Positions 37,711-44,281 of a stretch of DNA of 64,000 bases are shown here, one piece after another. The DNA lies in the IMG/VR virus record IMGVR_UViG_3300049320_000001, positions 1 to 64,000 of that record. One strand, 5' to 3'. Both the position numbers and the translations under genes were made by a program. The notes beneath the pieces were generated by a model. That model saw only the letters and a list, made by a program, of their open reading frames with translations, searched no databases and had not been told where the DNA came from. The DNA is from a virus (Duplodnaviria; Caudoviricetes). The first letter of the stretch is position 1; the number at the start of each line of letters is the position of its first letter.

Positions 37711-37778
37711 GGTTCACCACCTTGAGTAGTAGGGGCAGCAAGAGGGGCCAGGAGTTGGAATCCCTGGCCCCTCTTGCA

Positions 37779-38969
37779 TCAGACCCCGATGGTCTGGCGC
37801 TCGCGCTGGTTGGCTTCCTCTGCTGCGAAGAAGCGCTCCAGTTCGGCGTCAGTCGGCTCCCTGGTCCCCCAGTGGACGTTGGCCTTGGCCAAGATCTCGT
37901 CCTCATCGATCTGGAGGTGGAGCATCTGCTGGATCATGTGATCCTCGTGCGGGAGGTGTCCGGCGACGAGACCGAACTGCTCCATCGTGCGATCGATCCT
38001 GGACACGGAGTGGACGCAGAACGCGGCCTCGCCCTTGCCAGGATCGGTGCGGCTGACGACTCGCCGGATGTTGCCCGACGAACCCTTGTGGATGCGGTAC
38101 AGCCGCCCCTTGGAGCCCACCACGTGGAAGTAGTTGAACCTTGCGTACTCCTCACGCTGCTCCTCGGTGAGCAGGCCCAGGAGAGTCCCCAGAGCCCGCT
38201 CGGAGGCCGACTGCGTTGCCAGCCGCTCTGCCTCGACCCGCTGGAAGAGAGCCAGGGCTTCCGCCTGCTGGCGGGCCTGCCTCTCCTCGGGAGTCTCGAC
38301 AGGCCGTGCGTAGGTCAGTCCTCTACGAGCGACTTCCCGCTGAACATCGGCACCGTTGTACGCCTGGACGCCGTAGCCCACCCAGTTCCGCTCCCAGATC
38401 GTCTGGTTGGCAATGTAGGCGTTGGTGGAGATGGTGTACTGCTCGTTCCATCTACTCCAGGTGTAGGTATCGGTCATCAGCGTCACCGTGTTCGTCATGG
38501 CCGCTGTGGGCAGCCCGTTGATGTTGAAGATGTACTGCCCAGCGGTGTTGGTGGTACTGGACGTCATGGTGATCTCGAAGGGATGGTCTCGGACATGTGT
38601 GTAGAACCTGGTGACCCCGCCTGTTCCTTCGTGACGCACCAGCCCCAGCGTGTCGTAGCCCCTGTTCACCGTGACGGTCTGGTTGACCGGCCTGGAGTAC
38701 GTGGACACTGGGGGATGACGGATGATCTCCGTCATCTTCCGGTACCGCTCTGCCCACTGTCGCCGCCCGGTGTCCCAGGGCTGCTTGGCGGGAGAGTGAG
38801 CCACCAGGACCGTGTCCTCACCCTTGGGCCGGGTGCGGAGGACCCTGTTGCATCGAGCGCACGATCCGTATCCACCGCTGTAGTGCTGCTTGCCGTTCCG
38901 CAGCGGGTAGTAGTGGATGGCCTTGTAGATCGTGGCTGGGGCTTCACCAGCCCCCTGGCACTTAGCCAC
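37779..38969 (-). CDS. Partner of ubiquitin-like protein; N-terminal Cys motif and conserved-looking C-terminal domain with FCVH
   Basis: GTG 38969 overlaps the upstream stop; LL..L..EQ.EEY..F.V.GS.G..YRI..G..GNI..FCVH..LP.ED.M..Q.L.L..DE..L..AN. Confidence 0.65.
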   Translation of the reverse strand: MAKCQGAGEAPATIYKAIHYYPLRNGKQHYSGGYGSCARCNRVLRTRPKGEDTVLVAHSPAKQPWDTGRRQWAERYRKMTEIIRHPPVSTYSRPVNQTVTVNRGYDTLGLVRHEGTGGVTRFYTHVRDHPFEITMTSSTTNTAGQYIFNINGLPTAAMTNTVTLMTDTYTWSRWNEQYTISTNAYIANQTIWERNWVGYGVQAYNGADVQREVARRGLTYARPVETPEERQARQQAEALALFQRVEAERLATQSASERALGTLLGLLTEEQREEYARFNYFHVVGSKGRLYRIHKGSSGNIRRVVSRTDPGKGEAAFCVHSVSRIDRTMEQFGLVAGHLPHEDHMIQQMLHLQIDEDEILAKANVHWGTREPTDAELERFFAAEEANQRERQTIGV

Positions 38970-39252
38970 CGACCAACTGCGGGGCCATGATGATCTTCTC
39001 GGCGGTCGGGTCGAAGGTGTCGATCCGCTCGCCCTTCTCGCCCTGCGCGTTGACCTTGTAGGCCAGGTAGCGCTTCTCCTTGAGGGCCTCGAACTGCTTC
39101 TTGGCAGCCGCGACCTCGTCGGGGTTGTCCTTGCTCCACATGAATCGAGAGTCACCCGATCCGTCGAGCACGTACAGGCCGTGCTGACCCTGGGCCAGGA
39201 CCTCGTTCTCGGCCTGGCTGGCGGTCATCTTCTCGCTTGCGGTGGTGGTCAT
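38962..39252 (-). CDS. Putative ubiquitin-like (beta-grasp) protein ending in VGG
   Basis: Predicted beta-beta-alpha-beta-beta-beta order; C-terminus KIIMAPQLVGG-stop. Confidence 0.55.
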   Translation of the reverse strand: MTTTASEKMTASQAENEVLAQGQHGLYVLDGSGDSRFMWSKDNPDEVAAAKKQFEALKEKRYLAYKVNAQGEKGERIDTFDPTAEKIIMAPQLVGG

Positions 39253-39410
39253 GGTGCCCTTTCAGAGTCATCAGTTTCAGTGGATAGCCCTGGAAACATC
39301 TCGTCCAGGATCTTGTCGAGCCGTTCCTTTACTTCTGGTTCTTCGAGCCGAGCCCAGTCCTCCTTGGTGTGTGGTTGGGGAAACCCCAAGAGGCAGAGTG
39401 GGCAGGGCAC
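39249..39410 (-). CDS. Small hypothetical protein (53 aa, absent from ORF track)
   Basis: VPCPLCLLGFPQPHTKEDWARLEEPEVKERLDKILDEMFPG..; fills the gap with an overlapping stop/start. Confidence 0.45.
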   Translation of the reverse strand: MPCPLCLLGFPQPHTKEDWARLEEPEVKERLDKILDEMFPGLSTETDDSERAP

Positions 39411-40457: not shown

Positions 40458-42047
40458 CTAGACGGTCTTCTCGGGGACCTGGATCCGAGCCCAGTCCTCG
40501 TCCCCACCACGGTTGATGGTGGCGATGGACAGGGTGTCGCTCGTGGCCGAGGTGACCAGGCCCTTCATGGCGGTGTGCAGCGAGTCCGGGATGTGGCCCT
40601 CGCTGGCACCGGTCATCAGGTCGTACTGCTTGCGGATGGACGTCGCCGCGTGGACGAAGTCCTCCGTCCGCAGCACGTCCGGTGCCCCCTTCGTGCGGGA
40701 GATCGAGTAGCGGATCGTACGCCCGATGGCCTCCGCGATGAAGGCGGGGAGGAAGCCCTCCATCGCCTCACCGATGGCCTGGTAGTCGAGCGCCGTGTCC
40801 AACTTCTCGTCGGGCACGATGGCGTGGATCATCTTCTCCACGCCGGGGCTGTCGAGCGCCGAGATCTCGATGTAGGCGTCCGTACGACCCGAGCGGAGCA
40901 TCCCCTTGTGGATGTTGTCCGCGTGGTTGGTCGTCATCACGCAGATCAACTGCGTGTTCTTCTTCTGGATGCCGTCGAACATCTCCAGCAACTGCGACAC
41001 CTTGTCCGGGTCACCGCTCTGCGCGACCGTGTCGATGTCCTCGTAGAAGACGACAGCGGGCTGGTAGAGCAGGGCGGTCTGCATGACCTCGCCCAGGTTG
41101 TCCTTGCCGGGGCGGCACTGGATGAAGGTCCAGCCGTTGTCCACGGCAACCTGCGCCGTGAGCATCGCCGCCAGGGACTTGCCGGTGCCGTAGGGACCAG
41201 CGAGGAGAGCGGACCGCTTGAGGGACTGCCCGTTCGCCACCTGGACCTCCGGGAACCGGATGACGTCCCAGATGTTGGCCTCCAACTCCGTCTGGACGTG
41301 CTCGGAGTAGACGACCTTGGAGGGGTCCACCGTGAAGGGGTCGATGAACGTGGGCTGGGTGGCCCCCGTGATCGCTCGACCCTTGTAGATGGAGAACTCC
41401 TTCAGTTCGGCCTCGATCAACTTGAAGAGGCCCTGCACCTTGTTGCTGTGCTTGCGGTAGGTCTCGACGTGGAGCCGGAACAGGAGACCCAACTCGGCAT
41501 CCTGCATCTGGTCCGTCGTGAGGGTGGCCTCCAGCGGCGGGAACTCGATGACACCCCAGGGGACCTGGATCTGCTGGTCCACACCGCTGTCGATGGTGAT
41601 CATGCGGGGCGGGTTCTTCCCGAAGAGGGAGAACGTCGCCTGCGCGATCCCCGTCGTGCCGAAGTTGCGCTTGAGCGCCGACTGGAGCGCCGCAGCACCA
41701 TCCCAGGGCCGGTACTTGAAGGTCTGGGTGAAGGTCGTGACCTCCTCCTTCTGGGCGATGCGCTTCTCCCAGAACTTGAGCACCTCCCGGTCCTTGCCCT
41801 CGTACTGGGTCGGCACGACCCACTTGCCACCGTCGTCGTAGACGACGTCGTCGTCTCCGACCTGCTTGCCGCCGAGTTCTGCGAGGAGAGCCAGGAGGCG
41901 CTTCTCACCGATGCGGTCGGACTTGTCCTTGTCAGTGGGCACTTGGAACCTTTCGGGGTTGGTACCTACCTCAATGACGGGATTGTCACTGAGGAAGCGA
42001 ATGACGCTCTTCTCGAACGCCTTGCTGCTGAACGTGACGCTGGCCAC
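40458..42047 (-). CDS. Classical-clade AAA+ ATPase with BCS1-like Walker B
   Basis: GPYGTGKS (Walker A), VVFYEDID (Walker B), MTTNH (sensor 1), LRSGRTD (SRH/Arg finger). Confidence 0.88.
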   Translation of the reverse strand: MASVTFSSKAFEKSVIRFLSDNPVIEVGTNPERFQVPTDKDKSDRIGEKRLLALLAELGGKQVGDDDVVYDDGGKWVVPTQYEGKDREVLKFWEKRIAQKEEVTTFTQTFKYRPWDGAAALQSALKRNFGTTGIAQATFSLFGKNPPRMITIDSGVDQQIQVPWGVIEFPPLEATLTTDQMQDAELGLLFRLHVETYRKHSNKVQGLFKLIEAELKEFSIYKGRAITGATQPTFIDPFTVDPSKVVYSEHVQTELEANIWDVIRFPEVQVANGQSLKRSALLAGPYGTGKSLAAMLTAQVAVDNGWTFIQCRPGKDNLGEVMQTALLYQPAVVFYEDIDTVAQSGDPDKVSQLLEMFDGIQKKNTQLICVMTTNHADNIHKGMLRSGRTDAYIEISALDSPGVEKMIHAIVPDEKLDTALDYQAIGEAMEGFLPAFIAEAIGRTIRYSISRTKGAPDVLRTEDFVHAATSIRKQYDLMTGASEGHIPDSLHTAMKGLVTSATSDTLSIATINRGGDEDWARIQVPEKTV

Positions 42048-42413
42048 CTACGTGGCCTGTGGCACGTGCTGCCGGTAGGGGTCGCCAACGGCGTTCTCCT
42101 TGTAGGCAGCATGCACCAGGAAAGCCACGGTCAGGAGGTGATCGGTGATCAACTCCCTCTCGCGGCCTTGTTCGGGATGGTCAGCGAGGTACTGCTCGAC
42201 CATCCGGTTGGCGAGGTCGTCCCACTTCTCGTGCTGGACGCCCTCCCCACACGGGTCACAGGCAAGCCAGGGGCCGGTGTTGGTCGCAGTGACCACCTTG
42301 GTCTGGCCGTCTTCGCTCCCGGCGAGGATGTCCGTCTGGAAGGACTTCGCCGGGAACGCCCAGGCTTGCTCGGGAAGGTTCGCGCCACAGAAGTCGCACT
42401 TACCTCCCTGCAT
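42048..42413 (-). CDS. Zn-binding hypothetical protein
   Basis: CDFC..W.ACDPC. Confidence 0.65.
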   Translation of the reverse strand: MQGGKCDFCGANLPEQAWAFPAKSFQTDILAGSEDGQTKVVTATNTGPWLACDPCGEGVQHEKWDDLANRMVEQYLADHPEQGRERELITDHLLTVAFLVHAAYKENAVGDPYRQHVPQAT

Positions 42414-42664: not shown

Positions 42665-43274
42665 CAGCCTCTCTCTTCTGCCGTCGTGTGGCGGCGGATC
42701 GGGTGGCACGTTCAGCGCGGGCCTTGGCCTTCTCCTCTTCGGAGAGTGCCGCCCACTCCTCACGTGCCTTCTGCCTGAGTTCGTACTTCCGAGGGGCATC
42801 GGGGTCGATCCCTCGGTTGATCAAACGAGCCCGGTAAGCCTGACGAGCCCGCTCCTTGCGCTGCTCCACTTCCTGCTCTGGCGTGAGAGGAGGTGGCTTG
42901 GGGCGGAACTCGTGCAGCATGTGCTTGCCGGTGTTGTTCACCTGGTACTTGCGGTCAGGACTGAGGCGTACCAATCCCTTCTCCGGATCCCTCTCGAAAG
43001 AGGGTCCCCGCATGACCTTCTTGGCGAAGGCACGACCTCCGACCCGCATCAAGAAGTCGATGTCGTGGTTCTTCTTGCGAGGTTGGAGCGGCTCACCAGG
43101 GTGCTCCCTGCGCCACGCCAGTTCGCGCTGCCTCTCGGCGGTGCGGATCGCCAGCCCAGGTGGACAGGCCTGTGTGCCGACACGAAGAGCGGCCTCGTAG
43201 GAGTGCCACTTCTCGTCCGACAGGAACTCCACCAAGGAGTGGTAGACGATCCCACCCCTGCCCCTGGCAGGCAC
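42552..43274 (-). CDS. Basic hypothetical protein
   Basis: GTG coupled to upstream stop; overlaps the next gene by about 110 nt so the 3' end is uncertain. Confidence 0.55.
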   Translation of the reverse strand: MPARGRGGIVYHSLVEFLSDEKWHSYEAALRVGTQACPPGLAIRTAERQRELAWRREHPGEPLQPRKKNHDIDFLMRVGGRAFAKKVMRGPSFERDPEKGLVRLSPDRKYQVNNTGKHMLHEFRPKPPPLTPEQEVEQRKERARQAYRARLINRGIDPDAPRKYELRQKAREEWAALSEEEKAKARAERATRSAATRRQKREADAQIPSVHRHPGSEGDPGHAAGPGDRPGDPGEGDSRS

Positions 43275-44281
43275 TAGGACTCCGTCTGGCGCTTCTTGAC
43301 CAGTTCCGTGAGGGTGTCCAGGTGCTCCTTGGCAGTGGCGATGCGGGCCAGCAGGTCTGCCTCCTCCTGAGTGGCCACGGAGTCCAGGAAGGCCTGCTCC
43401 CTGTTGTACGCACCCTCGATGAAGCCGAAGGCGATGTACAGCGCCTGCTTGGGGGACTGGGCTCGACCCCGCTTGCCGAAGGCACCAGCCCCAGAGGCCT
43501 GGATGCGCGAACGGTTGGCAGCGATCAGGTCCTCGATGGCCTTCTTCTGGCGCACCGTGGACCGCTCCTTGTTGAGGCGGCTTACCAGGTCATCGACCTC
43601 GTCCGTGTTGAACTTCGCACGGAAGACGAGGTCGCACGCCGCCGAGAAGGTCTCGTCCGACTGGATGGCTCCCAGTCGAGTGCGAGCCTGATTGGGCAGG
43701 GACTCCCACTTGCTGCGGAGCAGACCCACCTCCTCGGCCCGGTCATCGGCCTTGCTCTTGGCGTAGGCACGACGCAGGGCGTGGACGGTGACGTTGAGCC
43801 GAGCCGCCGCCACCTCCTGCGTGGTGCCGTTCTTGACCATGTAGATCGCGTGGCGGATGCGCTCGTCCACGCTGTTGGGGAGGCCGTGCTTGGCGTTGGC
43901 CTCGTAGGTCATCAACACGATGGTCTTGGGATCGGTCTTCGGGTCGATGATGTAGGCAGCCACCGTCTTCTTGCCCGCGATCTTCGCAGCCTGGAGTCGG
44001 TGGTTGCCGTCGATGGCGAGGTACTTGCCCTGGTCCTTGTAGCAGAGGACGCCGGGGAAGATGTCTCCCCGCTTCATGGCCTCGACGTAGGTCTCGACCT
44101 GCCCCTCGTTCAGGACCTGGTTGATGCGAGCCTGGTTCCTCAGGGAGAGGTCCAGGTCGAAGTCAGCCAGCGGCACCTCGGGGTCGAACTTGTAGACGAC
44201 GGCCTTCTCGTCCAAGAAGGCTTCGATGTCCTGCCTTCGAGCGCGTTCGGCCTTCTTGGTTGCAGCAGCGGTAGTGGCCAC
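43274..44281 (-). CDS. ParB/Srx N-terminal domain protein with HTH
   Basis: VETYVEAMKRGD.FP..IDGNHRLQAA..ANAKHG; TTQEVAAARLNVTVHALRR. Confidence 0.8.
   Translation of the reverse strand: MATTAAATKKAERARRQDIEAFLDEKAVVYKFDPEVPLADFDLDLSLRNQARINQVLNEGQVETYVEAMKRGDIFPGVLCYKDQGKYLAIDGNHRLQAAKIAGKKTVAAYIIDPKTDPKTIVLMTYEANAKHGLPNSVDERIRHAIYMVKNGTTQEVAAARLNVTVHALRRAYAKSKADDRAEEVGLLRSKWESLPNQARTRLGAIQSDETFSAACDLVFRAKFNTDEVDDLVSRLNKERSTVRQKKAIEDLIAANRSRIQASGAGAFGKRGRAQSPKQALYIAFGFIEGAYNREQAFLDSVATQEEADLLARIATAKEHLDTLTELVKKRQTES

Follow-up and report, generated by a model that had tools for sequence, protein, structure and literature searches.

Conjugation of ubiquitin-like proteins (Ubl) in bacteria has so far been described as a process of the host, comprising sulfur transfer, Pup and the anti-phage systems Bil, Bub and type II cyclic-oligonucleotide-based antiphage signalling systems (CBASS). 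Pup is disordered, has GG-Gln/Glu at its end and is attached by PafA via the side chain of the Glu. The Bil, Bub and type II CBASS Cap2/Cap3 operons are host-borne and always contain an activating enzyme (E1), usually together with a JAB or another deubiquitinase. In phages lambda and T1, the tail assembly protein I (TAPI) is encoded in the tail gene cluster, carries a C-terminal domain joined to it by a Gly-rich linker and is paired with JAB and NlpC/P60 domains. No phage-encoded Ubl module was found to be described in the literature searched. The present work concerns a two-gene module, consisting of a small glycine-ended protein and a partner protein with a conserved Cys/Asp domain, which is located in a 64,000-nucleotide stretch (hereafter the window; positions 1 to 64,000) of the virus record IMGVR_UViG_3300049320_000001 (Duplodnaviria; Caudoviricetes), the complete record being 81,654 bp in length.

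The module shares the glycine-ended, here predicted, beta-grasp with the ThiS/MoaD-type carriers, Bil/Bub/CBASS and TAPI, and it fails the defining features of each of these systems, namely the E1 of the operon, the JAB, the E2 (conjugating enzyme) motifs and the location in the tail cluster. Like ThiS/MoaD, Urm1, the SAMPs and TtuB, it contains a small, predicted beta-grasp-type protein with a free C-terminal Gly-Gly and a dedicated partner encoded adjacent to it, and in some of these carrier systems (Urm1) an E1 suffices for conjugation (PMC9574740); unlike the ThiS/MoaD-type carriers, it was found to contain no significant profile relation to them, no E1 nearby, a partner unrelated to MoaE/ThiG/TtuA/MoeB and a family restricted to phages. 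Unlike Bil, Bub and CBASS, the module consists of two phage genes, with no E1 or JAB in the whole genome and a partner without detectable E2 similarity. It resembles the lambda/T1 pair of TAPI and the JAB/NlpC protein K as a phage-encoded, here predicted, ThiS/MoaD-like beta-grasp with a conserved C-terminal Gly and, in the case of TAPI, a neighbouring thiol/metallo-peptidase (PMC1779556), whereas, unlike TAPI, it stands alone outside the tail genes and is followed by a different partner. The points in common with Pup are a small tag, a Gly-Gly near the C-terminus, an actinobacterial setting and, here, the presence of a proteasome-type AAA ATPase gene 1.2 kb upstream; unlike Pup, the small protein is folded in the model and ends in Gly, no Pup ligase was found in the genome and only 4 loci contain the AAA ATPase near the module. 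The module would thus be a Ubl system whose partner domain is new and which lacks an E1.

Linkage of the small gene and the partner gene

Both families were found to exist and to be obligately linked, with the invariant residues given below. The two genes of the window and their principal features are the following:

38962-39252, minus strand: small gene encoding the 96-amino-acid ubiquitin-like (predicted beta-grasp-type) protein P0001, from the open reading frame (ORF) and its translation; G+C content at third codon positions (GC3) 0.91
38965-38970, minus strand: codons GGT GGC of Gly95-Gly96, read from the sequence, with the TAA stop at 38962-38964
37779-38969, minus strand: partner gene encoding the 396-amino-acid protein P0002, with a GTG start at 38969 inside the upstream GG codons; AlphaFold2 (AF2) model with a predicted local distance difference test score (pLDDT) of 73.5
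37869-38252, minus strand: partner residues 240-367, conserved C-terminal Cys/Asp domain (about 110 amino acids), from the alignment of 47 sequences
38016-38018, minus strand: codon of the invariant Cys318 (TGC), from sequence and conservation
37941-37943, minus strand: codon of the invariant Asp343 (GAT), from sequence and conservation

The start of the partner gene was found to lie over the last codons and the stop of the small gene, with an overlap of 8 nt, GTGGCTAA, and the C-terminus of the small protein reads ...EKIIMAPQLVGG followed by the stop (the last residues being IIMAPQLVGG). The GTG start is supported because the homologues share the same M-x-x-C N-terminus. The original prediction had described a 96-amino-acid ORF ending in VGG and an overlapping ORF of 396 amino acids, and both were found where it had placed them.

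The forward test of the linkage comprised 48 loci, namely 44 IMG/VR loci from the scan with the small-protein alignment, the window and three exact look-up loci, and was carried out with hidden Markov models built here. In all 48 loci a gene with the C-terminal domain of the partner was found downstream of the small gene on the same strand (E 1e-24 to 1e-43), so that the pairing supposed by the original prediction was borne out. The two genes were mostly separated by a few nt or overlapping, and a gap of 195-750 nt was found in seven loci. Within +/-5 kb, no other gene family was common to more than 6 of the 48 loci. In the reverse test, the search with a sub-alignment of the partner domain yielded 7 new contigs, 6 of which could be assessed. 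The small gene was adjacent in five of these six, one of them with reversed gene order, and one 407-kb phage contained no small gene within 4 kb. The pair is far beyond chance: the small protein has 45 homologues and the partner 16 of full length, the terminal Gly is invariant and the pairing holds in 48/48 loci. That the two genes are merely adjacent and functionally unrelated, with the GG end being incidental, is hardly credible, since the adjacency in 48/48 loci and in 5/6 reverse contigs extends across a GC content of 36-70% while all other neighbours vary, and since the terminal Gly is invariant at all spacings.

The GC content of the loci in the module-bearing phages ranged from 36 to 70%, and the pair therefore persists across very different phages. 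The sole match among GenBank phages was Virus Rctr197k (KX853510.1, L001), in which genes 113 and 112, annotated as hypothetical, form the same pair; it was also the only match of the small protein in the records of cultured phages, and three diverse partners had no tblastn match in 50,697 phage records. Among cellular genomes, the small protein was found on one contig of a metagenome-assembled genome (MAG) and the partner domain in 3 of 401 Acidobacteriota genomes, with the small protein adjacent where the contig allowed a check. Among the genomes searched, the module is thus uncommon as a prophage or host gene. Because of the pairing, the single GenBank match, the GC spread and the rarity in cellular genomes, the module is a mobile, self-contained cassette of uncultured phages.

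Some loci were found to contain variant arrangements. Three partner paralogues were present around one small gene in locus L036 (3433-5842), and L032 (5243-9001) contained a second partner-domain gene about 3 kb downstream; a second small gene, known from the family tally, is probably also to be placed in L032. In L069 (3797-4818; a 407-kb phage) the partner was found before the small gene. Five related loci (L006, L008, L019, L022 and L031) contained a gene of 140-170 amino acids between the small gene and the partner, which starts with M-C-L, contains G-F-H-x-Y and V-T-C-x-G and was without a match in Pfam; this gene may be a third component specific to the lineage. In Virus Rctr197k, annotated clustered regularly interspaced short palindromic repeat (CRISPR) regions and transposase-like genes were found within 2-5 kb of the pair (110.8-119.5 kb).

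The small protein and its glycine tail

The small protein was found to have 45 homologues in a collection of 5.8 billion proteins, all of which were metagenomic. The residues G33, D34, W39, E46, A49, A50, P91 and G96 were invariant across the alignment of these homologues, and the penultimate G95 was kept in at least 90% of them. In the 48 loci the small protein was found to end with GG-stop in 44, with AG-stop in 3 and with GG followed by 3 further residues in 1. The further tail variants were PG (Virus Rctr197k and the MAG contig), GGSR and GGN, and the last core Gly was never lost. The free C-terminal glycine, usually as Gly-Gly, is an essential feature of the small protein, in keeping with the exposed di-glycine to which the original prediction had drawn attention. 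About 90% of the small proteins are made in the mature form, with GG and then the stop. The possibility that the GG is imposed by the overlapping GTG start was ruled out, as the GG was kept at all spacings, from overlap to 750 nt. The small protein was also found to be rich in Lys (9.5%), even in high-GC phages.

No credible match of the small protein was found in Pfam, PHROGs or NCBIfam, and none of the 45 members had a Pfam match even at E up to 10. The comparison with sequence profiles of the PDB gave three chance-level matches (E 0.08-1.5). Across Pfam, NCBIfam, PHROGs, PADLOC (searched with the partner domain only) and PDB sequences, the best E of either protein was 0.005-0.009, below the cut-offs. 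No longer proteins containing the small protein as a fusion were found, which is weak evidence.

The AF2 model of the small protein, built on the 45-sequence alignment (pLDDT 77), was found to contain about 20 disordered N-terminal residues followed by the presence of a beta-beta-alpha-beta-beta-beta core and a tail of low pLDDT (63), which is consistent with flexibility. This secondary-structure order is the beta-grasp order named by the original prediction. Foldseek against the PDB returned SUMO, ubiquitin, Ras-binding domains, PB1, FAT10 and bacterial Ubl, with a best E of 0.009, and two independent fold searches were headed solely by beta-grasp proteins (SUMO, ubiquitin, protein L, PB1, BubA, MoaD and TtuB) with weak scores. 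The fold of the small protein is predicted with moderate confidence to be of beta-grasp type.

The tail of the small protein was compared with that of 29 ThiS/MoaD sequences taken from Acidobacteriota genomes. In the hhalign comparison the tails were set in register, with E-K-I-I-M-A-P-x-L-V-G-G in the phage and D-E-V-A-F-F-P-P-V-S-G-G in the host, and several phage small proteins were found to end with ...A-P-P-M-V-G-G. In the phage protein, as in the host MoaD tails, position n-5 after the last strand is Pro and position n-3 is hydrophobic, and this tail pattern was the only part found to be alike.

The partner protein and its Cys/Asp domain

The 16 full-length homologues of the partner were found to be variable in the N-terminal two thirds and strongly conserved in the last ~130 residues. 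In the profile search of 1.84 billion cluster representatives, 11,774 were matched by the partner domain at E<=0.001, of which 7,663 reached E<=1e-10, and the signature of this family was found to be N300, followed by 17 residues, C318-x-H320-P321 and then P340-x-x-D343. Only C318 and D343 were invariant among 63 sequences, and likewise in the 47-sequence alignment. In the 150 best-scoring representatives, no two of which share a 50%-identity cluster, C318 and D343 were conserved throughout (150 of 150), N300, P340 and Q348 in 149, P321 in 145 and H320 in 140. The Cys of FCVH, which had been put forward by the original prediction as a candidate active-site residue, was in this way found to be kept in 63/63, 47/47 and 150/150 sequences. 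The LPHED stretch (339-343) named along with it was present, and of its residues P340 and D343 hold family-wide while H341 and E342 are lineage-specific.

The conserved domain was found to contain, in order, a helix, four short strands, C-x-H-P, a loop, the P-x-x-D helix, a further helix and A-N. The AF2 model contained a helix at 269-278, four short strands with Cys318 ending the fourth, a loop, two helices (341-362) and a final strand. The conservation of C318 and D343 is the pattern expected of catalytic residues, and a catalytic role would be consistent with the alignments. A Cys/His pair oriented by the Asp may be present in the domain, and is geometrically plausible because a His at i+2 on a strand would adjoin the Cys.

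The same residues bear on the possibility that the partner is a Cys-His-Asp peptidase or transpeptidase for the small protein, which would trim its extensions or deconjugate conjugates made by a host E1, conjugation by a host E1 only being the case in the archaeal SAMP and Thermus TtuB systems. The invariant Cys with a near-invariant His at i+2 on the same strand face and an invariant Asp would suit such an enzyme, and the members ending with GGSR, GGGFA and GGN would need trimming. This reading appears quite unlikely, as about 90% of the small proteins are already mature, the partner resembled no peptidase family in Pfam or the PDB, and the Cys-x-His spacing is, to our knowledge, not that of the known papain-type or transglutaminase-type triads.

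The suggestion of the original prediction that the partner is E2/UBC-like was not sustained. Foldseek of the full-length partner model against the PDB returned nothing below E 0.03 and no E2, RWD or UEV, and the VIA search with the full-length partner likewise returned none of these, its list being filled by coiled coils that match helix 224-267. A single significant row was found in BFVD for the full-length partner, a 268-amino-acid protein that was taken to be the Rctr197k homologue, and the ESM Atlas search returned only unnamed clusters. The partner domain had no match among sequence profiles of the PDB. The Pfam scan of the 47 members gave one match to an E2 family, Prok-E2_E (E 0.16), and no member matched UQ_con, RWD or Prok-E2_A-D. 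With Prok-E2_B, the profile of which contained only 3 sequences, hhalign gave no alignment. The member-by-member scans of the partner domain with PADLOC and PHROGs gave single noise-level matches, none of them to an E2 or Ubl-system model. The partner family was found to lack a His-Pro-Asn (HPN) or His motif 7-10 residues before the Cys, and the three Prok-E2_B domains examined read P-H-x-E-x-x-G-x-L-C instead of the partner signature. Only two points were found to favour an E2, namely the secondary-structure order of partner residues 269-362 (helix, 4 strands, 2 helices), which is compatible with the UBC fold, and the statement that the classical His is missing from some bacterial E2-like proteins, in which a conserved His lies C-terminal to the Cys instead (Iyer et al. 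2006, PMC1779556).

The searches also bear on a sulfur-carrier pair in the manner of MoaD-MoaE, ThiS-ThiG or TtuB-TtuA, in which the tail, thiocarboxylated by host enzymes, would deliver sulfur to the partner site or to a persulfide relay on the Cys and a phage or host molecule would be thiolated. Such a pair is distinctly improbable here, as the partner was found without similarity to MoaE, ThiG, TtuA, rhodanese or any sulfurtransferase and without Fe-S Cys clusters, and target recognition accounts better than a single fixed chemistry for the variable N-terminal parts with their repeats and for the presence of several paralogues per small gene. We describe the C-terminal domain of the partner as a new Cys/Asp domain with no assigned fold.

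The N-terminal part of the partner in the window was found to contain the following features:

38790-38969, minus strand: partner residues 1-60, all-beta zinc-ribbon-like module, from the alignment; strands 13-55 at pLDDT 81-91
38400-38681, minus strand: partner residues 97-190, Trp-rich uncharged beta region with W171-x-x-W174, W192 and W196, from the alignment and the AF2 model
38172-38291, minus strand: partner residues 227-266, long charged helix leading into the conserved domain, from the AF2 model

In residues 1-60, C5, C37 and C40 were conserved wherever the N-terminus is present and H58 was nearly invariant, so that this module may bind metal in the manner of a zinc ribbon; it was found to be specific to the sub-lineage of the window. 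The counterpart of the Trp-rich region in the shorter family members is their region of W-x-x-W repeats, and the helix 227-266, a possible coiled coil in the model, was the only part of the partner with VIA matches. A typical member of the partner family contains about 200 amino acids, with an uncharged Ser/Thr-rich N-terminal part followed by the helix. The N-terminal part usually contains three W-x-x-W(N/T) motifs, 16-25 residues apart, and 253 W-x-x-W motifs were counted in 132 representatives versus 35 +/- 6 expected from shuffled sequences. The three repeats may point to a small module that is lectin-like or serves in binding. No credible match of the full-length partner was found in Pfam, PHROGs or NCBIfam, the sole rows being Pfam matches at E 0.009-0.09, well under the curated cut-offs, and the sub-threshold Pfam matches in the Trp-rich region were to a beta-prism lectin and Inhibitor_I66. 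The avoidance of Lys in the partner as a self-protection from tagging was considered and ruled out, as not only Lys but also Arg is scarce in the N-terminal part and the Lys content of the C-terminal domain is normal.

Surrounding genes, missing enzymes and proposed action of the pair

The tail and lysis genes of the virus were found on the plus strand up to ~34.9 kb, followed by the presence of a long minus-strand arm of mostly unannotated genes. The module was located among unannotated accessory genes, outside the replication and structural genes, and is followed by one further feature:

37738-37777, minus strand: 16-bp GC-rich perfect hairpin, which begins 2 nt past the stop codon of the partner gene and contains no U tract

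The hairpin was found to fold as RNA with -34.8 kcal/mol (z = -6.05), and none of 200 shuffles was equally stable. It was not among the terminators reported by the consensus scan, for which a T run is required. The hairpin has the look of a terminator and probably marks the end of the transcription unit.

Upstream of the module, a 53-amino-acid ORF (39249-39410, minus strand) was found, with its stop and the start of the small gene overlapping in ATGA. The GC3 of this ORF was only 0.57 versus 0.91 in the small gene and 0.78-0.93 in the neighbouring genes, it had no counterpart in the other module loci, and it is probably a non-coding leader and not a gene. The gene of a classical AAA+ ATPase of 529 amino acids (40458-42047, minus strand), located 1.2 kb upstream, was closest to the modules of proteasome-activating, CDC48 and FtsH type and matched phrog_10440, the function of which is unknown. 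This ATPase was considered as a third component and ruled out, as it was found near the module in only 4/48 loci. Directly upstream of it, a protein of 121 amino acids (42048-42413, minus strand) contained C-x-x-C and C-x-x-C (CDFCG... and CDPCG...) without a family match and is a probable zinc ribbon, and the same minus-strand arm contained a ParB/Noc-like protein of 335 amino acids (43274-44281, minus strand) with weak matches to the ParB N-terminal domain.

The complete 81,654-bp genome was found to contain a single copy of the partner domain and no match to ThiF/E1 (PF00899), Prok-JAB, JAB or a Pup ligase, so that the absence of E1 and JAB noted for the window by the original prediction extends to the whole genome. 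A ThiF-type E1 was detected in 12 of 14 control genomes, with two in the MAG carrying the pair, and ThiS/MoaD was found in 39 of the 41 Acidobacteriota sampled (a tally that includes one unpublished genome, G025, no sequence of which was used). Prok-E2_B was found in only 3 of the 401 genomes searched.

The original prediction had offered a 'conjugation pair' and a 'decoy of host Ubl systems', both of which would be interpretations of the families found here. In the latter, the small protein would act non-covalently, mimicking the tail of MoaD/ThiS or of a defence Ubl (Bil, Bub) and blocking or diverting a host E1/E2, while the partner would hold, deliver or regulate it and no phage-made conjugate would be formed. 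The absence of E1, E2 and JAB from the phage genome, the similarity of the tail pattern to the host ThiS/MoaD tails and the location of the module among unannotated accessory genes rather than replication or structural genes are all consistent with such a decoy or inhibitor, and bacterial Ubl systems are known anti-phage defences (10.1101/2023.09.04.556158). A pure decoy would not require a partner with Cys and Asp invariant in 150/150 representatives, and the GC spread of 36-70% argues against a rare defence as the target, Prok-E2_B being so scarce in the genomes searched; we regard a decoy as unlikely.

The reading to which we incline, with somewhat less than even confidence, is that of an acyl-transfer pair, in which the glycine tail is activated by a host E1 of MoeB/ThiF type and then engaged by the Cys/His/Asp site of the partner. 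The host MoeB/ThiF-type E1 would adenylate the tail of the small protein; a host enzyme is proposed because the phage was found without an activating enzyme. The phage tail would copy the tail pattern of the host MoaD/ThiS, with a hydrophobic strand, Pro, x-x-x and Gly-Gly. The activated tail would then be taken up by the partner site as an acyl (thioester) intermediate, followed by the passing on of the small protein to a target chosen by the variable N-terminal part of the partner. The acyl-transfer reading fits most of the facts, namely the invariant Gly, the invariant Cys/Asp, the variable N-terminal parts, the several paralogues per small gene and the absence of a phage E1. The contact between tail and Cys, the covalent chemistry and any target would all follow from this reading.

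Several points weigh against an acyl-transfer pair. The small protein is not ThiS/MoaD (PF02597) at the level of sequence, as the hhalign comparison with the 29 ThiS/MoaD sequences gave a probability of 0.7% and a single-comparison E of 0.086. No test detected an E2/UBC fold or another known thiol-enzyme fold in the partner, and His320 was found to be replaced by Gln, Ser or Tyr in ~7-17% of the members. A few small proteins contain 1-3 residues past the GG (GGN, GGSR and GGGFA), which would have to be trimmed first. The use of a host E1 is purely inferred, and the obligate linkage of the two genes fits a non-covalent complex equally well.

A more specific form of the acyl-transfer pair, possible but doubtful, would be a minimal tagging system carried by phages of very different hosts, composed of a Ubl tag and a non-E2 thiol transferase of a kind not recognised before, with a swappable W-x-x-W targeting part. 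It would borrow the housekeeping MoeB/ThiF of the host and, in the course of infection, mark host or phage proteins. If the pair is a decoy, it would be a candidate broad inhibitor of the E1-dependent pathways or the Ubl-based defences of the host. If it is conjugating, phages would use Ubl tagging themselves, without an E1 of their own, and a new Cys/Asp enzyme domain would be defined; the module would then be the first Ubl conjugation machinery encoded by a virus of prokaryotes, and its partner a new class of Ubl-transfer enzyme.

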